Shown here: positions 2,822 to 13,205 of the stretch, piece by piece | How positions within the stretch are numbered: position 1 is the stretch's first letter | Layout of the letters: every line of letters starts with the position of its first letter | From: Methanotrichaceae archaeon | GTDB taxonomy: Archaea > Halobacteriota > Methanosarcinia > Methanotrichales > Methanotrichaceae | Assembly (NCBI GenBank): GCA_963754945.1 | Contig: CAVWIG010000043.1 | Coordinates: forward strand, 1 to 13,230 | Length of the DNA stretch: 13,230 nucleotides | Reading direction: 5' to 3' | The notes under the pieces: generated by a model | Told to the model about the DNA's origin: nothing | Databases searched by the model: none | What the model saw: only the letters and a program-made list of their open reading frames with translations | Program-made: the position numbers and the translations under genes

Positions 2822-4717
2822 TCAACCCTCGATGAACCTCATGCGCATCTCGTAGACTCCTTCCTCGCGTCTCTTTTCTATTTCGAACCCCATCTTCTCG
2901 AAGAGGCGGAGCATCGCCTTGTTCTCCACCAGAACCTCGGCCGTGAAACCAAGCAGGCCCTGCTTCCTGGCCAGGTATGTTAGATAGGATAGCAGTTCAG
3001 AGCCCACCCCTTGGTTCTGGCACTGGTCCTTTACCACCAAGGCTGCCTCTGCAGTGTGAATGTCCCTGTTCAGCTCGTACTGGCCAAGGCCGATTATAGT
3101 CTCCTTTTCCTTCCCTTGAATGACCGCTAATATCTCCATCTTCTTGGTGTAGTCCACAGCGACGAAATCCTGGAGCCTCTTGTGGGGCATGTCCTTTCTT
3201 TGAGAGAAGAAACGCAGGTACATGCTGTCCCCAGAAAGAGCGTAGAAGAAGTCCTTCAGCATCTGTTCGTCTGTGATTTTCACCGGCCGGAGAAGGAGGT
3301 CAAGACCTTGCTTTGTTGTCCTGTAGGTCTCCAGCTCCTCAGGGTACACTCCCTTCTCGCCGGGAACAAACGCCTGATCCTTGTAGACCAGAGTTCGTTT
3401 TTTGGCCTCCTCCAGCAGCCAGGGCCTGAACATGGGGTGGGCAATGGATATCAGGTCCATGGCCCTCTCCCGGATGTTCTTGCCGTGCAGGTAGGCTATA
3501 CCGTACTCAGTGACCACGTAGTGCACATCTCCCCTCGTGAGGGTCACTCCTGCTCCCTCCTGCAGGACGGGGACTATCCTCGATACTGTATCGTTCAGGG
3601 CAGTTGAGGGCAGGGCCAGAATTGTCCTGCCGCCAGGTGCCAGCACGGCACCGCGCATGAAGTCTGCCTGGCCTCCAATGCCGCTGTAGAAAGTCCCCCC
3701 CAACGACTCGGCAGTGGCCTGGCCTGTCAGGTCTATCTCCATGGCGCTATTAATGGCGGTCATCAGGTGGTTTCGGGCGATGATCAGGGGGTTGTTGGTG
3801 TAATCGATCCTCTTGAACTCCACAGTCGGATTCTCATCGAGAAAATCGTAGGTTTCTTTGCTGCCCATGCAGAAAGAAGCTATGGTCTTGCCCGGATTGT
3901 GGCTCTTCTTTGAGTTGTTGACCACACCCGTCCTCATGAGGTTCACTATGCCGTCGCTCAAGAGCTCCGTGTGAACACCTAGGTTCTTTTTTCCGCCTAG
4001 GTTTGAAACAACAGCGTCGGGTATGATGCCGTATCCAACCTGGATGGTTGAGCCGTCTTCGATTATGCGGGCGACGTAGCTGCCTATTCTCTTGACTATG
4101 TCGCTAGGCGCTTCCACAGCGTACTCCAGCATCGGCTCATCATGTGGCAGCAGAAAGTCGATGTCTTCTATGTTTATGAACCCGTCACCGTGCGTCCTGG
4201 GCATGTTGGAGTTGACCTGAGCTATGACCAGGGTTGCCTTTTCCGTAGCAGCCTTGACGATGTCTATGCTAATCCCGAGGCTCACATAGCCGTGCTTGTC
4301 CGGCAATGAGGTCTGTACCAAGGCTACGTCTATCGGTATTATTTTCCTCCGGAACAGATCGGGAACTGCGGATAGAAAAATTGGGGTGTAGTCAGCAGCA
4401 CCACGGTTTACTGAGTTCCTGGTACTGTCGCCCACGAAAAAAGAGTCAAGGCGAAAGTTCTCCTGGAGCTTCTCATCAGTGTAAGGTGCAACGCCCAAAG
4501 TCCATACGTGGATCAGCTCGGTGTCGAAGAAGGCCTTTGGATTGCTTCTGACGTAGTTCACCAGAGCTTGAACGAGGTACTGGGGCTCACCGCAGCCGGT
4601 GCCTATGAATATCCGGTCGCCAGCGTGAATATGGTGAAACAGCTCCTCCTCTGATGTGAACTTCTCCGGCCATGCCGTTTTCATCCTCTCAAGGTTTCTC
4701 AAGCCCTCAGTGTCCAT
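2822..4717 (-). CDS. Acetyl-CoA hydrolase/family I CoA-transferase fused to a C-terminal GNAT acetyltransferase domain
   Basis: GCGEPQ, QVNSNMPRTHGD, HTELLSDG (catalytic Glu), SGIGGQADFMRGA and VVTEYGIAYL motifs. C-terminal GNAT with QNQGVG acetyl-CoA loop and NKAMLRLFEKMGF. Start set at ATG 4717 after a GAGGAG RBS (631 aa). Confidence 0.92.
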   Translation of the reverse strand: MDTEGLRNLERMKTAWPEKFTSEEELFHHIHAGDRIFIGTGCGEPQYLVQALVNYVRSNPKAFFDTELIHVWTLGVAPYTDEKLQENFRLDSFFVGDSTRNSVNRGAADYTPIFLSAVPDLFRRKIIPIDVALVQTSLPDKHGYVSLGISIDIVKAATEKATLVIAQVNSNMPRTHGDGFINIEDIDFLLPHDEPMLEYAVEAPSDIVKRIGSYVARIIEDGSTIQVGYGIIPDAVVSNLGGKKNLGVHTELLSDGIVNLMRTGVVNNSKKSHNPGKTIASFCMGSKETYDFLDENPTVEFKRIDYTNNPLIIARNHLMTAINSAMEIDLTGQATAESLGGTFYSGIGGQADFMRGAVLAPGGRTILALPSTALNDTVSRIVPVLQEGAGVTLTRGDVHYVVTEYGIAYLHGKNIRERAMDLISIAHPMFRPWLLEEAKKRTLVYKDQAFVPGEKGVYPEELETYRTTKQGLDLLLRPVKITDEQMLKDFFYALSGDSMYLRFFSQRKDMPHKRLQDFVAVDYTKKMEILAVIQGKEKETIIGLGQYELNRDIHTAEAALVVKDQCQNQGVGSELLSYLTYLARKQGLLGFTAEVLVENKAMLRLFEKMGFEIEKRREEGVYEMRMRFIEG

Positions 4718-4923
4718 CTCGTTTCTCCTCGCAGCGCACCCACTGTATATGTCATTCAAGTCAGTTCAACTGCACAATTGTATCGTTGATTTAGCTATCT
4801 TTAAGGATTATCTTCTAGGACTTCATCGTCTTTAACTCTATCTATATCGGCATCTTGTGAAAGGGAGAAGGACTTTGAACACGAGTGCATCAACCTGAAC
4901 TTCCTAGTTTCGAGGCTCAACAC

Positions 4924-4953
4924 CATGAGTCTTAATGTCATGAGTCTTAACGT
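4924..4953. repeat. 15-bp tandem duplication CATGAGTCTTAAYGT x2
   Basis: catgagtcttaatgt (4924-4938) followed by catgagtcttaacgt (4939-4953), 14/15 identical, in the divergent intergenic region. Confidence 0.8.
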
Positions 4954-5088
4954 TAAATTTTGTCTTATTGATCTGAGAAGGTACAAATACGATTAGAACC
5001 AAAATAAAGGTGTTATCGACGTATCCAAAATAATGAGAAGATATTGAACACTTCATTAGAAACATCTGCACCATAGATCCACTGGAAT

Positions 5089-5346
5089 ATGGAGGCGAAT
5101 TATACTTTGTCGGATATAGTGCCGGACGCTGAGCTGGATTGCATCGGGCTGTTCTGCCCCTTGCCCATTGCCAGGACCAAGGAGGAGATAGAGAACATCG
5201 TGGTTGGTCAGGTTCTCAAGGTGGAAGCCGACGACCCAGCTGCAGAGGAGGACATCGCCCGCTGGGCTAAGCGGGCAGGTCACCAGGTCCTCAAGTTCGA
5301 AAAGTCCGGGAACATCATCACCTTCTTCATAAAAAGAATGAAGTAG
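5089..5346 (+). CDS. tusA: TusA/SirA-family sulfur carrier protein
   Basis: LDCIGLFCPLP (CPxP motif), GQVLKVEADDPAAEEDIARW; ~80 aa. True start may be TTG 5107 (GGAGG at 5091-5095). Confidence 0.93.
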   Translation: MEANYTLSDIVPDAELDCIGLFCPLPIARTKEEIENIVVGQVLKVEADDPAAEEDIARWAKRAGHQVLKFEKSGNIITFFIKRMK

Positions 5347-5439
5347 AAACGGGGGACGGATAGAGTAGTCGAGACGTGGTGGGGAGAATAGAGCGGCATT
5401 AGTGGCGCATTACGAATTGGAGGAAAAGGTGAGGATAAT

Positions 5440-5799
5440 ATGAGCACCATACTTTATGTGCAGACCAGCGGCGTAGACACGCCTGAGAGAACCTATGCCC
5501 CTTTCATCCTTGGTATGACCGCCAGGGCAATGGATGTCGAGGCAGAGATATTTTTCATGATCAAAGGCATAACCATCCTCAAGAAGGGCGAAGCAGAGAA
5601 GGTGAAGTTGGGAAGCTTCCCCAGCCTCAAGGAGGTCATCGACCAGGCAGTAACGGCTGGGGTCAAGCTGTACATCTGCGAGCAGAGCACCCAGCTTTTC
5701 GGCATGGCGAGGGGTGACTTCATCCCTGAGGCTAAGGTTGCAGGAGCGGGGACTCTGAACGACCTTGCCCTTGATGCTGACTCTGTTATAACCTTCTAG
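5440..5799 (+). CDS. DsrE/DsrF/TusD-family sulfur relay protein
   Basis: 119 aa; PERTYAPF, IFFMIKG, GVKLYICEQS (conserved Cys) and VAGAGT motifs typical of DsrE-like proteins; AGGTGA/GAGG RBS upstream. Confidence 0.85.
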   Translation: MSTILYVQTSGVDTPERTYAPFILGMTARAMDVEAEIFFMIKGITILKKGEAEKVKLGSFPSLKEVIDQAVTAGVKLYICEQSTQLFGMARGDFIPEAKVAGAGTLNDLALDADSVITF

Positions 5800-5855
5800 A
5801 GTGAATAACTCTAGAGAGATAAATAGGACTGAAAAGAATTTAGGCTGGAGAGCAA

Positions 5856-7010
5856 ATGTGTGGAATATATCTGGACTATCAATCGGCCATGCCGGTGGAC
5901 ACAAGGGTGTTGGAGTTTGCGGAGAGGTATCTCGCCAAGGAGTTCGGAAATCCATCAGCCCTTCACTCCGTCGGCCTGGCTGCCAAATCGGCCGTTGAGG
6001 AGGCCAGAACGAAAGTGGCAGAGCTCATCAACGCCCCAGACCCTTCCAACATAATCTTCACCGGCAGTGCCACCGAGGCAAACAACTTGGCCATCAGGGG
6101 AACAGCCCAAAGAAACGCTGCTAAAGGGAAGAAGCTCTTGGCCAGTGCCATCGAACACATCTCCGTTCAGAACGCCATGAAGGAACTACAGAAAGGAGGC
6201 TTCGAGCTTTCACTGGCTCCCGTGGACTCTACGGGCATTGTCGATCTGGCGGTCCTTGAAAACCAGCTTTCTAAAGACACGATCGTAACCTCTGTAATGT
6301 ACGCCAACAGCGAAATCGGCACCATCGAGCCTATAAGAGAGATAAGCCAAATGGTCCACGATAAGGGCATGTTCCTGCACGTGGATGCCGTGGCCGCCCA
6401 GGGAAAGATTTCCATCGACGTCCAGAAAGACGGCATAGACCTGTTGACAATCTCGTCAAATGACATGTATGGGCCCCAGGGCGCAGGGGCACTGTACGTT
6501 AACCCCAAGGTAAAGCTTCAACCGACACAGCTTGGGGGCGGACAGGAAAAGGGCCTCCGTCCGAGCACGGAGAATCTTTTCGCCATTGCCGGGATGGGCG
6601 AAGCTGCTCGTCTGGCTAAACTGGAGATGAACCAGGAGAGCGACAGGCTGCGGCACATAAGAGACGATCTGATCAAAGAGCTCCTGAAGATCGATGGGGC
6701 TTATCTGACGGGCCATGCTACTATTAGACTGCCTCACCATGCCAGCTTCAGGTTTAGCCGTATAGAGGGCGAGAGCATTCTGCTCACCATGGACGCGATG
6801 TTCAATATTCAGGTATCCACGGGGTCGGCCTGCTCCTCAAGGACCCTGGAGCCTAGCCACGTCCTTCTGGCCATCGGGCTCAAGCACGAGCAGGCCCACG
6901 GCTCGATGGTGACGACCCTGGGAAAGTATAACAGCCCGGACCAGATACCTGTGATATCAAAGGCGGTCAACCAGACGGTGCAGAGGTTGAGGGCGCTGTC
7001 TCCATTATAA
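5856..7010 (+). CDS. iscS: IscS/NifS-like protein lacking the PLP-binding lysine (Archaeoglobus IscS-type)
   Basis: FGNPS, IIFTGSATEANNLA, IEH, GGGQE and STGSACSSRTLEPSHVL (Cys326) are group I desulfurase motifs, but SSNDMYGP replaces SxHKxYGP (Asp203, codon 6462-6464). Confidence 0.93.
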   Translation: MCGIYLDYQSAMPVDTRVLEFAERYLAKEFGNPSALHSVGLAAKSAVEEARTKVAELINAPDPSNIIFTGSATEANNLAIRGTAQRNAAKGKKLLASAIEHISVQNAMKELQKGGFELSLAPVDSTGIVDLAVLENQLSKDTIVTSVMYANSEIGTIEPIREISQMVHDKGMFLHVDAVAAQGKISIDVQKDGIDLLTISSNDMYGPQGAGALYVNPKVKLQPTQLGGGQEKGLRPSTENLFAIAGMGEAARLAKLEMNQESDRLRHIRDDLIKELLKIDGAYLTGHATIRLPHHASFRFSRIEGESILLTMDAMFNIQVSTGSACSSRTLEPSHVLLAIGLKHEQAHGSMVTTLGKYNSPDQIPVISKAVNQTVQRLRALSPL

Positions 7011-7073
7011 ATGTAAGATTGATCTAAATCAATTGAAGTCGATAATCTAACCCGAGTCAAGGTGACTAGCAAA

Positions 7074-7514
7074 ATGGCACAAGTAGGTTACAGCAAGAAA
7101 GTGATGGAGCACTTCATGAACCCCAGGAATGTTGGGGTGATCGAGAACCCGGACGGCTACGGTAAGGTCGGCAACCCTGTCTGCGGGGACCTAATGGAGA
7201 TCTTCATCAAGGTCAGGGACGACAAAATAGACGACATCAAGTTCAGGACCTTCGGCTGCGGTTCGGCAATAGCTGTGAGCAGTATGGTCACTGAGATGGC
7301 CAAGGGTAAGCCTCTGGATGAGGCCATGAAGATCACTAGGAAAGACGTAGCCGACGAGCTCGAAGGCTTGCCACCCCAGAAGATGCACTGCTCCAACCTT
7401 GGCGCGGATGCCCTTCACGCAGCCATCAAGAACTACTGGGTCAAGATCGGGAAGATAAAGCCAGAAGAGGCTAAGCCTGAAGGCGAAGAGGGAGAGACTT
7501 GTTCCACTGAATGA
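7074..7514 (+). CDS. iscU: Fe-S cluster scaffold IscU/NifU-N
   Basis: YSKKVMEHFMNPRNVG, GNPVCGD, FGCGSAIA and LPPQKMHCS: three scaffold Cys plus Asp/His ligands. Start ATG 7074 after an AGGTGA RBS. Confidence 0.95.
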   Translation: MAQVGYSKKVMEHFMNPRNVGVIENPDGYGKVGNPVCGDLMEIFIKVRDDKIDDIKFRTFGCGSAIAVSSMVTEMAKGKPLDEAMKITRKDVADELEGLPPQKMHCSNLGADALHAAIKNYWVKIGKIKPEEAKPEGEEGETCSTE

Positions 7515-7710
7515 GACTTGACGAATCGACCGATCCGTCTGGTTAAATCATTCTTTTTATCCCAATCCCAATATTCTCCAACGTCAATACGTGAGCAACA
7601 AACAAAATCGTGGTTAAGGAATTGATCGGTCAAGTAAAGGCATCATTCGCTGCGTCTCCAAGTCCTGCTGATATGGCATGGCATCTTCAACGATCACAAA
7701 AGCTGTTTCA

Positions 7711-8112
7711 TTAAGCCAGTCTAATGCAAGTCTCAATGGCAGTGCGTAAATCATCAAGCCAAATGGGCTTGGCGAGGTATCCGTCCATGCCTGCTTCAAG
7801 GCATTTCTCCCGATCGCCTCTCAGGGCGTAAGCAGTAATGGCAATTATCCTTGGCCCGTCGTTGGGCCAGCGTTGGCGGATGATTCGAGTGGCCTCCAGG
7901 CCGTCCATCTCAGGCATCTTGACGTCCATGAGCACTACATCGTATGTATGGTGTTCCATGGCCTGCAGGGCCTCTATTCCGTTTGCTACTGCGTTCGCCG
8001 TGTAGCCCAGGTGCTCGAGCATGAGCATGGTTACCTTCCTGTTTGACGGCTCGTCTTCCGCTAGCAATATTCTTAAAGAGCTACCGCTATTCTGGCAGCT
8101 TTTATCTAACAT
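7711..8112 (-). CDS. Stand-alone response regulator receiver (CheY-like) protein
   Basis: ILLAEDE, VVLMDVKMPEMDGLEA (phospho-Asp), IAITAYA and YLAKP motifs; 133 aa with no output domain. Confidence 0.9.
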   Translation of the reverse strand: MLDKSCQNSGSSLRILLAEDEPSNRKVTMLMLEHLGYTANAVANGIEALQAMEHHTYDVVLMDVKMPEMDGLEATRIIRQRWPNDGPRIIAITAYALRGDREKCLEAGMDGYLAKPIWLDDLRTAIETCIRLA

Positions 8113-10332: not shown

Positions 10333-10541
10333 TCTCTGCACGCTGTATACCTATCCACCTTAATACTACTTTATAAGGCTTGCGTATCGTAGTTTGTACA
10401 ACAATCATGAGCAACGATATAAAGAGTGCTTTCCATGTGGAATTTGATTAAATGGCAGAACTCTGTCACTCTGTCACGTCGATGGAAAATTATAAATCAC
10501 TTCAAGTAGATTATGCCAGAGTACTGGATGGGGGATCAAAA

Positions 10542-11246
10542 ATGATGTACCTTTCAAATTACCGATTGGTCCTGCTGGCAATGGTCTTTATTTTGCTTGG
10601 CTCTTCGGCCATTGCTCAGGACAGTTCTGCACTCACGTTTGGATCGAAGGTTAAGCTTTCAGACTCGGATGAGTCCAAGGCACTTTGTCGGTTTTTCGTC
10701 GATCCCGAATTTGCATTTTATGATGCGAACATTAAAGGGATTTTCGATTCGGGAGATCCCGTTTACATACACATAAACCCGACAGAGCCTACGGTAAGCG
10801 AGAACGATGTTCGCCTTACTTCGTTTGGCAGCTTCCCACCCGGCAGTCAGGTTCGTTTAACCGACCCAGATGTCGGGTACCCATTATCCCAATTCGGAAG
10901 TAACGGATTTCCACGGGCTGAAGTCAGGTACTTCGATGTAGATGGTGACAAGGCATATAGCCTGAACGATCCTGTCTACCTTGACTTCAATCCTGGCACA
11001 GTGAGATCAGGAGATATCAGGCTGACCAACTATATGGGATATGAGGCAGGCACCAGAGTCCGTGATTCGGACTTAGACAGCGGAAAGCCAACAACTATAC
11101 TTCCTGGTATGCTCAATTTCTTCAACTCCAACGGAGATATAAACAACGGAGGGTATGCCATATACGATTCAGGTGATATAATTTATATGGACACCCAGGC
11201 ACCATTCCTTACCGTAACAATCAACGACATCAGGTTGTCGAGTTGA
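10542..11246 (+). CDS. Secreted three-repeat protein (probable sheath/cell-envelope protein, paralog 1)
   Basis: Start at ATG 10542 (GGGGGA upstream) gives a signal peptide (..RLVLLAMVFILLGSSAIA|Q). Three repeats G[ST]xVxx[ST]DxD...DpVY...[NG]D[VI]RL, shared with the two downstream genes. Confidence 0.85.
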   Translation: MMYLSNYRLVLLAMVFILLGSSAIAQDSSALTFGSKVKLSDSDESKALCRFFVDPEFAFYDANIKGIFDSGDPVYIHINPTEPTVSENDVRLTSFGSFPPGSQVRLTDPDVGYPLSQFGSNGFPRAEVRYFDVDGDKAYSLNDPVYLDFNPGTVRSGDIRLTNYMGYEAGTRVRDSDLDSGKPTTILPGMLNFFNSNGDINNGGYAIYDSGDIIYMDTQAPFLTVTINDIRLSS

Positions 11247-11274
11247 TTCAGATATTTTGTTCTGCTGAATTCAA

Positions 11275-11321
11275 AGCAAGAGCCAACGCGAATACGCGCT
11301 GGCTTGCTGATTTTTTTCTTT
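11275..11321 (+). terminator. Hairpin plus T-tract after paralog 1
   Basis: AGCA..AGCCA-a-CGCG-aata-CGCG-c-TGGCT-TGCT stem (11275-11308) followed by TTTTTTTCTTT. Confidence 0.65.
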
Positions 11322-11443
11322 GAAATTTTGTCCACCGAAGCTCAGCATCTCTTCAGTCAGATCTGCCCTGAAATTATTCTCAGTATTATCTTTTATTCAT
11401 AATTCGAATGTCCTCGCTTTTTCTTGAATCTTCTAAACTACCA

Positions 11444-11480
11444 AAAAATACTTATATTAATACAATAAAGAGGGATATGC
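11444..11480 (+). promoter_or_regulatory. Archaeal promoter (A-rich BRE, TTATAT TATA box, ATGC initiator element)
   Basis: aaaaatacTTATATtaa (TATA 11452-11457) with ATGC at 11477-11480, at methanogen-type spacing; predicted TSS ~G11479. Confidence 0.55.
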
Positions 11481-11704
11481 TGTAAGAGAAGCCCTAGCCA
11501 TAGTTTGGCTAGAGCTAAGGGGCTGCTGATTTGTTTGGCCATATAAAATATCGGGGGGGGTAATAAATTAGGTAGACCGTAGGCGCGTCTATCGAGTCAA
11601 ATATGGCGAATTGAGATGCCGCAGGATCGATGTGGCGTTAGAATCTCTTTGGTTCTGACAATCAATGACGCGTATTGACTGCAGATTAGTTTCTGAGCAT
11701 ATTT
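11473..11704 (+). ncRNA. Putative structured 5' leader / cis-regulatory RNA (no family recognised)
   Basis: Eight mutually compatible nested helices found by eye, many with G-U pairs that work only on the + strand (see findings). Confidence 0.65.
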
Positions 11705-11741
11705 GATGAAATATTACTAGGATTAAATCGGAGGAGGTGTT

Positions 11742-12443
11742 ATGTTGAAAAAGTCAATAAGGGCTTGTATTGTGCTTGCAAGCTTGGTTATGCTAATAGG
11801 AACGAGCCTAGCTACGTCGTACGAGTTTGGCTCGAAGGTACGGGCTGGAGACACGGATGTCAACGATGCGCTTATTCCCAATGGAGGTCTGGTCGTAGGT
11901 TTCATGGATCTACCGCCACTAAACGCATTAGTCCCTGATCCGAATGATGTGGCTTACCTACATCAAGGCGCTCTTCCTGGGGCCATTTTACCAGGTGACG
12001 TCAGGCTTTCGTCGTTTGCAGGTTTCCCCGCTGGGACCAGAGTAATGACAACCGACCCTGATGCCGGACGCCCGATAAACGCATTTCCAATAACAGCTAA
12101 TTGGGCATACTCAGCACTGTTTGATGGAGTGCCACCACAACCTTGTGATATCGAAGATCCCGTATATTGGGCAATTAAAGCAGCATCAGGAGCACATTCA
12201 GTTGCTGATTTGAGGTTGTCAAAAATTCAGAACCTTAATCCCGGAACTTGGGTGAAAGATAGCGATGTCGACTTCAATAATCCCATACAACTCTTGAATA
12301 ACGCTTCACCAATGATCCGTGATCTCAACGGTAACGGGCAGTATGATGACTCGGATTCAGTGTACCTGAAAATAAATAATGCATCACCCACTGAAGTGCA
12401 ACCAGGAGATCTGCGCCTCATAGCAATTAGTGGCCATAGCTAG
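11742..12443 (+). CDS. Secreted three-repeat protein (probable sheath/cell-envelope protein, paralog 2)
   Basis: Strong GGAGGAGGTG RBS; signal peptide MLKKSIRACIVLASLVMLIGTSLA; repeats YEFGSKVRAGDTD / AGTRVMTTDPD / PGTWVKDSDVD, each closed by D[VL]RL. Confidence 0.9.
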   Translation: MLKKSIRACIVLASLVMLIGTSLATSYEFGSKVRAGDTDVNDALIPNGGLVVGFMDLPPLNALVPDPNDVAYLHQGALPGAILPGDVRLSSFAGFPAGTRVMTTDPDAGRPINAFPITANWAYSALFDGVPPQPCDIEDPVYWAIKAASGAHSVADLRLSKIQNLNPGTWVKDSDVDFNNPIQLLNNASPMIRDLNGNGQYDDSDSVYLKINNASPTEVQPGDLRLIAISGHS

Positions 12444-12461
12444 GTATGGAGGTACAACAAA

Positions 12462-13205
12462 ATGAAAGATCTGATTAAAGCTTGCGTATTGTGCGCAAGT
12501 TTGATACTGATGTTCAGTATCGGCAATGCTGCAGCATATGATTTTGGCTCGAAAGTCATATCTGGAGACGCCGATGAAGGGAAGATCCTTGAAAGCTTCC
12601 AGGCTGCTGGACTTACTCCAACCGTTGCCTTTCTGAGCTTGTCAAACCCGACCACGTTCGACGCAAACTCAGTTGTCTACATAAATTTCGCCGGCAACAT
12701 GAGGGTCAACGTCGGCGACCTGAGGCTCACCAATTACAGCAATCTGTATGCCGCTGGTACAAAGGTTAAGAGCGGCGATCTGGACTTCGGGACCGGACCA
12801 CTTACGCCTTTCGCTAACCCAGCCGGGCAGATATACTTCGGACCTCGATTCTCCGCTCCGGACTATGTCTTAGACGATTCAGTATACCTCAAGACATCGC
12901 CTCTGCCCCTCGTAACAGGCCTCAATGACGTAAGGCTGAGCAGCCCAGTAGGCGCCATTCAGGCTGGCTCCAAGGTCAGCGACAACGATGGTGACTGGAA
13001 CACGCCCTTGACGCTGATGACAAGTGCGGCAGCAGGCGTGGTCAACCTTGGACCAGTAGCTGAGCTGAGGTTCTACAACATAGACGGCGATGTCAATGCC
13101 CTGGGGGCACCTGTCTACGGCTCGGAGGACCCGGTCTATCTGGATGTTTCCTTCCCAGGATTCGCAACCTATGGAATAGTGTCGCCCAACGACGTTCGAC
13201 TCTAG
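12462..13205 (+). CDS. Secreted three-repeat protein (probable sheath/cell-envelope protein, paralog 3)
   Basis: GGAGGT RBS; signal peptide MKDLIKACVLCASLILMFSIGNAAA; repeats YDFGSKVISGDAD / AGTKVKSGDLD / AGSKVSDNDGD; ends NDVRL. Confidence 0.9.
   Translation: MKDLIKACVLCASLILMFSIGNAAAYDFGSKVISGDADEGKILESFQAAGLTPTVAFLSLSNPTTFDANSVVYINFAGNMRVNVGDLRLTNYSNLYAAGTKVKSGDLDFGTGPLTPFANPAGQIYFGPRFSAPDYVLDDSVYLKTSPLPLVTGLNDVRLSSPVGAIQAGSKVSDNDGDWNTPLTLMTSAAAGVVNLGPVAELRFYNIDGDVNALGAPVYGSEDPVYLDVSFPGFATYGIVSPNDVRL

Follow-up and report, generated by a model that had tools for sequence, protein, structure and literature searches.

Pairs of the desulfurase-like protein IscS and the iron–sulfur (Fe-S) scaffold IscU in which IscS has no catalytic lysine have been crystallised, with their function left unexplained; such an IscS cannot mobilise the sulfur of cysteine. 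The inactivity of the IscS of Archaeoglobus fulgidus and the use of one of its cysteines as a cluster ligand were reportedly described by Marinoni (2012), Yamanaka (2013) and Pagnier (2014). As cited in the available text of PMC7585200, this IscS is without desulfurase activity because an aspartate replaces the essential lysine, and it gives a cysteine ligand to the [2Fe-2S] cluster on IscU; the lack of bound pyridoxal phosphate is likewise reported, and for the A. fulgidus protein only. The present analysis concerns a locus of the same kind, a run of four genes (tusA, a dsrE-like gene, iscS and iscU) at positions 5089–7514 of a stretch of 13,230 nucleotides from a Methanotrichaceae archaeon (assembly GCA_963754945.1, contig CAVWIG010000043.1), hereafter the window. 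Its lysine-less IscS–IscU pair is of an already known kind, the A. fulgidus IscS2–IscU (PDB 4EB5) type, and is preceded by the genes of two sulfur carriers. This linkage of tusA and dsrE to lysine-less IscS alone is tight and has long been kept, and the conserved carriers upstream offer a concrete hypothesis for the sulfur donor that the pair lacks.

In Escherichia coli, TusA obtains its sulfur from cysteine through an active IscS. The window resembles that system (IscS structures 3LVJ–3LVM) in combining a TusA-family protein bearing a CPxP motif with a class I IscS-type protein that retains the mobile-loop cysteine; unlike E. coli IscS, the window protein has no lysine and therefore cannot start the relay, and the window TusA lies under the equivalog cut-off for TusA. 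A single-cysteine DsrE3-like protein next to TusA, as in the window, is known from sulfur oxidisers (Hyphomicrobium, Thioalkalivibrio and Aquifex, as well as the DsrE3A of Metallosphaera). The available text of PMC11094781 describes DsrE3B and DsrE3C as homotrimers donating sulfur to TusA, gives DsrE3 to TusA as the preferred direction and reports that both proteins load sulfur from polysulfide in vitro, in agreement with the statement of the initial annotation of this DNA that members of the two families pass on persulfide sulfur. The sink in the sulfur oxidisers is the sHdr complex, whereas the neighbours in the window are an IscS with aspartate in place of lysine, IscS(Asp), and IscU, in an anaerobic host of the methanogen type.

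Such anaerobes also use the minimal SufBC (SMS) system, which the available sources describe as a sulfide-based, desulfurase-free Fe-S assembly; its scaffold family is unrelated to IscU. The genome of the window holds one SufB-family gene. To our knowledge, no carrier proteins are known for the SMS system. Published work on the A. fulgidus proteins treats the pair alone, and no mention of carrier neighbours was found in the available text of PMC7585200 and of a 2024 preprint. In the latter, iscS2U2 of A. fulgidus on its own does not complement E. coli UT109, not even when Na2S is supplied, and the question of the missing component is raised by the authors (bioRxiv 10.1101/2024.03.20.586028, available text). 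In the available text of a 2026 review of Fe-S biogenesis, TusA is mentioned solely as a protein that accepts sulfur from E. coli IscS, DsrE is unmentioned and the minimal IscS–IscU system is called the least studied Fe-S pathway. The initial annotation knew of no characterisation of the four-gene module and, in keeping with this, a full-text literature search, with supplements outside its coverage, yielded no functional study of the carrier link and no paper assigning a role to the tusA and dsrE neighbours of lysine-less iscS–iscU.

The four genes are plus-strand open reading frames (ORFs), as follows, together with two flanking features read from sequence only.

4760..5088: presumed promoter region, a 329-nt A+T-rich spacer between the divergent minus-strand gene at 2822–4759 and tusA
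5089..5346, plus strand: tusA, TusA-family sulfur carrier of 85 aa (PF01206)
5440..5799, plus strand: dsrE-like gene, DsrE3-like sulfur carrier of 119 aa (PF02635)
5856..7010, plus strand: lysine-less iscS, A. fulgidus IscS2 type, 384 aa (PF00266)
7062..7514, plus strand: iscU scaffold, 150 aa counted from a GTG start (PF01592)
7550..7560, plus strand: T-run ATTCTTTTTAT, a possible archaeal transcription stop about 40 nt past the iscU stop codon

The ORF coordinates bear out the description of the genes as co-oriented and closely spaced, with intergenic gaps of 93, 56 and 51 nt in the order tusA-dsrE-iscS-iscU, and the residues on which the initial annotation relied (CPLP in TusA, ICEQS in the DsrE-like protein, the missing pyridoxal phosphate (PLP) lysine and Cys326 in IscS, and all the ligands of IscU) are present. 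Since minus-strand genes bound the four on both sides (2822–4759 and 7711–8112), the unit is self-contained; the gene next after the T-run is the convergent one at 7711–8112.

A scan of species-representative genomes with the window IscS gave 80 related loci, a set that leans towards the lysine-less type because one of the search patterns held the N-D motif; the record titles are archaeal for 58 of them and bacterial for 22, and the closest relatives judged by IscS come from records titled Methanothrix or Methanotrichaceae. Where at least 900 nt were available upstream of iscS (70 loci), tusA and dsrE were both found in 57 cases, tusA only in eight, dsrE only in three and neither in two. Downstream, iscU follows iscS in 74 of 77 loci, and the complete four-gene set is present in 52 of the 67 loci having both flanks.

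Lysine-less and lysine-bearing proteins were compared in a sample from the phylum of the window. A search of 401 genomes gave a match at E <=1e-30 in 215, and the best 120 places outside the window's own genome among 150 listed (there were 182 further matches) were taken with 2.5-kb flanks; this phylum sample yielded 121 IscS homologs with a score of 300 bits or more against a profile made here. Upstream of the 64 lysine-less genes, tusA and dsrE occur together in 44 cases, tusA only in 12, dsrE only in five and neither in three, while for the 57 lysine-bearing genes the counts for both, for tusA only and for dsrE only are all zero and neither carrier is found in any of the 57; the carrier profiles were built from the close-relative set, and a very divergent TusA or DsrE beside a lysine-bearing IscS could be missed. 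A carrier thus stands directly upstream of 61/64 lysine-less and 0/57 lysine-bearing genes, and the enrichment that the initial annotation had proposed looking for is indeed there. The carrier-linked lysine-less genes span 25 genera and 16 families, the lysine-bearing genes 31 genera and 17 families. The window locus is the Methanothrix-family member of a module that is widespread in anaerobic archaea and bacteria.

Two described systems can be placed in this picture. The A. fulgidus IscS2–IscU complex (4EB5, 4EB7 and 4HVK, with the Asp-to-Lys variant 4R5F) shares the S-S-N-D motif and the loop cysteine with the window IscS, and a dsrE-like gene likewise precedes the one that encodes the crystallised protein: in one genome of the sample (G172), the IscS of locus L117 equals 4EB5 chain A except for one of 379 aligned residues, and the dsrE-like gene lies directly before it. 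At this A. fulgidus IscS2 locus only dsrE was seen within 2.1 kb upstream, in contrast to the tusA and dsrE of the window; the paralog in the same genome (L116), which shares a clade with the window IscS, is preceded by both. The second system is the isc1 cluster of Methanosarcina acetivorans (IscS1 MA0808, IscU1 MA0807), already known from drawings in the literature. In five Methanosarcinaceae genomes, a third IscS copy reads S-A-H-T (threonine for lysine, histidine kept) with the loop TGSACFS, which is the loop motif listed for M. acetivorans IscS1 (PMC7585200, available text). Each of the five has, upstream, CPxP-bearing TusA-like ORFs that score low (13–26 bits) together with a DsrE-like ORF and, downstream, a long IscU, and none of the six His-Lys copies of the same genomes has carriers beside it. 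The isc1 type differs from the window in its SAHT motif, its longer IscU, an identity of 38–40% to the window IscS and a position outside the clade of the latter in free trees.

The window IscS belongs to the fold of PF00266 (Aminotran_5; 7.6e-69), and its best solved match is 4eb5_A, the A. fulgidus 'probable cysteine desulfurase 2' (4.5e-127 over residues 5–384), with an identical SSND motif. Aligned to the N-D of 4eb5_A and the H-K of 9wep_A, the residues S-S-N202-D203 replace the canonical S-x-H-K. Among close relatives, position 202 is Asn in 82/82 sequences and position 203 is Asp in 80/82, with one Thr, one Ala and no row with Lys. The mobile-loop Cys326, in G-S-A-C-S-S, is retained and invariant in 53/53 sequences. 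With the catalytic PLP lysine replaced by Asp203 and scores below every NCBIfam desulfurase equivalog cut-off (TIGR03402, 405 versus 530.75; NF010611, 378.3 versus 548; TIGR02006, 377.7 versus 643.2), the protein falls outside canonical IscS/NifS; its fold, S-S-N-D motif, loop cysteine, adjacent iscU and clade all place it in the lysine-less A. fulgidus IscS2 type. When 59 lysine-bearing were compared with 64 lysine-less sequences, the changes extended beyond the lysine: Q180, R352 and A10-T11-T12, at least 95% conserved in the lysine-bearing group, have been substituted or vary among the lysine-less sequences (Q180, H202, K203, R352 and A10-T11-T12 are all at least 88% conserved in lysine-bearing IscS), and Cys326 and its surrounding loop are conserved in the lysine-less proteins despite these changes. 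Q180, R352 and A10-T11-T12 probably correspond to residues with which E. coli IscS contacts PLP and its substrate.

The window TusA matches PF01206 at 8.9e-24 (83.6 bits; cut-off, 28.6) and is the sole TusA-family match in the assembly. Its active Cys23 lies within C23-P-L-P, and a second cysteine, Cys18, stands five residues earlier. None of the 53 module-linked TusA sequences departs from C23, P24 and P26, and at least 90% also have C18. The DsrE-like protein matches PF02635 at 4.9e-21 and carries its conserved Cys80 in I-C80-E-Q-S; C80 and S83 are invariant in 44/44 module-linked homologs. The closest solved structure is 3mc3_A (7.2e-17, cysteine aligned), which is the trimeric DsrE3A of Sulfolobus solfataricus (PMC11094781, available text). 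Membership of the DsrE fold family and a single conserved active cysteine mark the window protein as a putative DsrE3-type sulfur carrier. Both carriers score below the corresponding NCBIfam equivalog cut-offs (49.8 versus 78 bits for E. coli-type TusA, NF001423; 48.1 versus 210 for DsrE2) and, as judged by these scores, belong to the families without being orthologous to the E. coli or Dsr proteins of those names.

The second TusA cysteine recurs widely. The pattern D-C-x-G-x-x-C-P-x-P, with a cysteine five residues before that of CPxP, is found in 121 of 144 TusA-like ORFs (the window and L010–L257), and this cysteine is missing from the Methanosarcinaceae type and from one genus; it might serve as a resolving cysteine. 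Lysine-less variants with Asn-Gln in IscS (L112, L113 and L114) have three consecutive TusA-like ORFs upstream, two of them without CPxP. Elsewhere in the window's genome, three adjacent DsrE/DsrF/DsrH-like genes (125, 119 and 114 aa) lie on the minus strand of contig C20 (22857–23932) next to the gene of an ArsR-like Fe-S protein and constitute a second sulfur-carrier set, unlinked to the module.

The scaffold is a complete IscU/NifU-type protein (PF01592, NifU_N, 3.2e-49; TIGR03419, 206.3 against a cut-off of 187.9), with the ligands C41, D43, C66, H109 and C110, that is three Cys, Asp and His, the LPPxK motif as LPPQK and a 20-residue acidic tail. It matches 7c8m_A (8.4e-68) and the A. fulgidus partner 4eb5_C (6e-53) and is the sole IscU-family match of the assembly. 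IscU orthologs from the family of the window (L253–L257; genomes G103, G063, G243, G152 and G303) are 72–81% identical in four genomes and 49% identical in one. The tusA-dsrE-iscS(Asp)-iscU module, seen in the window and in its closest sampled relative (G358), is one of three contexts in which IscU occurs in this family.

The N-x type of IscS, in which the residue after Asn is Asp or rarely Gln, Glu or Thr, forms one clade with 100/100 support that includes the window gene and the A. fulgidus paralog L116. Three free trees place the His-Thr (Methanosarcinaceae) and His-Gln (L185) types outside it, but the branches concerned have weak support. A tree constrained to join all lysine-less IscS came out 23.8 log-likelihood units better under LG+G4 (p-AU, the p value of the approximately unbiased test, 0.69) and 21.8 units worse under a mixture model (p-AU 0.18). 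A convergent gain of the carrier linkage was considered and dropped, a single lysine-less grouping not being rejected in either case. Because the N-x type is one clade and a single lysine-less tree is not rejected, the linkage counts are not independent events. Adjacency is kept down to 49% IscS identity within the clade and at about 40% (38–40%) relative to the His-Thr type, and the most cautious interpretation is a single ancient arrangement, or at most a few, retained as IscS diverged, in archaeal-titled and bacterial-titled loci alike. Such retained synteny is good evidence for functional coupling, and not for repeated convergent recruitment.

Contigs from three peat RNA libraries match parts of all four module genes. 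One of them (X3 record 15, 6968–7130, no mismatch) spans the iscS–iscU junction, and in another (X5 record 17) the 3' end of tusA and the beginning of dsrE are linked by a spacer shortened by 70 nt. The RNA contigs give no cover at the flanks 4700–5011 and 7508–7611, where the DNA run X1 partly covers; the gap at 7508–7611 is a weak hint of a relation to the T-run stop.

The arrangement suggests that the four genes form one operon-like module relaying sulfur into the IscU scaffold, a proposal that we hold to be about as likely as not. The DsrE3-like protein would take up sulfane sulfur on Cys80 and hand it to Cys23 of TusA; TusA would then dock on the lysine-less IscS and persulfurate its mobile-loop Cys326, and IscS, incapable of making a persulfide from cysteine, would pass the sulfur to IscU. 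By analogy with the A. fulgidus complex, Cys326 may in addition serve as a ligand while IscU acquires its [2Fe-2S] cluster. The reading of the initial annotation, in which a reversed flow would carry sulfur from sulfide or polysulfide onto Cys326 of IscS, is partly supported. We infer the direction of sulfur flow and its independence from cysteine; a sulfur source other than cysteine is put forward tentatively and with some doubt. The most far-reaching form of the proposal, a complete cysteine-independent Fe-S assembly line fed from sulfide or polysulfide, in which the carriers would be the part lacking in the failed iscS2U2 complementation and which would be indispensable here with the lysine-bearing IscS, the SufS-like and the CysK-like genes broken, is similarly doubtful. 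If the carriers are indeed the missing sulfur donor, this would be a third sulfur-feeding route into Fe-S assembly, besides the desulfurase-dependent systems and SufBC with sulfide, operating in organisms that range from methanogens, methane oxidisers and sulfate reducers to numerous uncultured anaerobes. To what is known of the module, the window adds a case from the Methanothrix family and observations on the other sulfur genes of its genome.

Several observations weigh against the proposed relay. Three lysine-less IscS genes of the phylum sample (L097, L150 and L152) have no carrier at all and, as the loci with tusA only and dsrE only illustrate, the arrangement can do without either one. 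The ORF resembling tusA beside the His-Gln type (L185; 49 bits) is without the CPxP motif and gives weak support. IscU orthologs from the family of the window also occur alone or beside a lysine-bearing IscS (L255), and all the lysine-less genes may go back to a common ancestor. The contigs of the RNA libraries may hold DNA and cannot show a single transcript, so that they are only a hint of co-transcription, and the literature search found no paper on any sulfur-transfer step of this module.

The origin of the sulfur is the point at which the other desulfurases matter. The window's own genome encodes a lysine-bearing IscS with the motif SAHK on contig C39 and a SufS-like protein on C44, each gene being split by one frameshift in the assembly. 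A separate canonical desulfurase supplying this IscU, which the initial annotation had named as grounds against its reading, is possible with these two genes. A survey of frameshifts with 1342 ORFs from the fetched loci as queries matched 92 own genes at an identity of at least 55%, of which 79 are intact, ten are partial for trivial reasons and three are split across two frames. The split genes are the lysine-bearing IscS (C39:58960-60121; L003/L004), the SufS-like gene (C44:26486-27662; L001/L006) and a CysK-like gene (C17:111315-112239), all three encoding PLP enzymes that produce or consume free cysteine. The splits may reflect true gene loss, errors of assembly or a mixture of strains. 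A tRNA-dependent cysteine route as the explanation for a broken cysK was rejected: no SepCysS, which would make that loss tolerable, was found above the cut-off in the 87.7%-complete assembly, and this argues against the three frameshifts as real losses. The pattern is not relied on here, because the query ORFs were drawn from the surroundings of IscS genes, the assembly is a metagenome-assembled genome and SepCysS was not found.

Five other module-bearing genomes were searched with PF00266. No lysine-bearing desulfurase was found in three of them (G172, G047 and G065; a single contig and 99% complete each), in which the strong matches are lysine-less IscS only, followed by class V aminotransferases without the Cys loop or by weaker relatives of the fold. 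The other two (G110 and G017) encode a SufS-like protein that carries Lys and the HHCC motif. A true desulfurase thus accompanies the module in some genomes and not in others, and the first sulfur could be sulfide-derived sulfane sulfur or could come from a true desulfurase acting in trans.

A relay that is real and cysteine-fed, in which a true desulfurase elsewhere (IscS with Lys, or SufS) loads TusA and DsrE and the carriers distribute the sulfur to IscS(Asp)–IscU, would fit the own C39 and C44 genes, the SufS-like genes of G110 and G017 and the open Lys-type IscS (L163) of the closest sampled relative, G358. The frameshifts in both own candidate genes and the three genomes that show no lysine-bearing desulfurase speak against it, and we consider it unlikely. 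The flow might also run in the opposite sense, with IscS(Asp)–IscU as the holder and TusA and DsrE as acceptors in sulfane-sulfur salvage or detoxification, or in cluster repair under oxidative stress. Redox and oxygen-defence-like families are the commonest in the flanks of 143 lysine-less loci and, in the available text of PMC11094781, a role in the detoxification of reactive sulfur is proposed for the DsrE4 group and sulfur transferase networks are described as having no strict direction; the same text, however, gives DsrE3 to TusA as the preferred direction, such stress genes are absent from the window (ORF list and Pfam), and the flank counts come from related genomes and reach a maximum of 30/143. 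We regard this role as quite improbable.

Mere co-location, with TusA and DsrE serving the thiolation of tRNA, molybdenum cofactor or thiamine while IscS(Asp)–IscU uses free sulfide directly, appears more improbable still. Its appeal lies in the several unrelated roles of TusA in E. coli (PMC13066941, available text), in the chemical loading of IscU with sulfide and iron, which is possible (PMC7585200, available text), and in the 3/64 lysine-less genes without a carrier nearby. Against this, the adjacency persists to 49% IscS identity, across 16 families of one phylum and in bacterial-titled loci, carriers are found beside 0/57 lysine-bearing IscS genes, and iscS2U2 with sulfide was insufficient in E. 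coli (bioRxiv 10.1101/2024.03.20.586028, available text).

As a separate observation on the neighbourhoods of the 143 lysine-less loci, for which family names were read off the sequences, the flanks most often encode a ferredoxin:thioredoxin-reductase-like CPC protein (30), followed by flavodiiron-like (23), ferritin-like (22), rubrerythrin-like (20) and peroxiredoxin-like (16) proteins.

The window is the entire contig C43 of an assembly of 2.97 Mb that is 87.7% complete. No regulator site before tusA is proposed: the 260-nt regions upstream of tusA from 14 loci are alignable only between the window and its closest relative L010, and no conserved motif could be defined among them. The genes that bound the module were assigned from Pfam as follows.

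2822-4759, minus strand: acetyl-CoA hydrolase/transferase domains fused to a C-terminal GNAT acetyltransferase domain, 645 aa
7711-8112, minus strand: response regulator

Further away, three paralogous genes of 264, 233 and at least 247 aa occupy 10452–13205. Two of the three were searched against Pfam and neither has a match; the proteins have signal-like N-termini and repeated motifs ending D-[IVL]-R-L-[ST] and may be cell-surface proteins. At 703–1354, two overlapping small ORFs (109 and 111 aa) resemble a nucleotidyltransferase/HEPN-type pair as judged by motifs alone.

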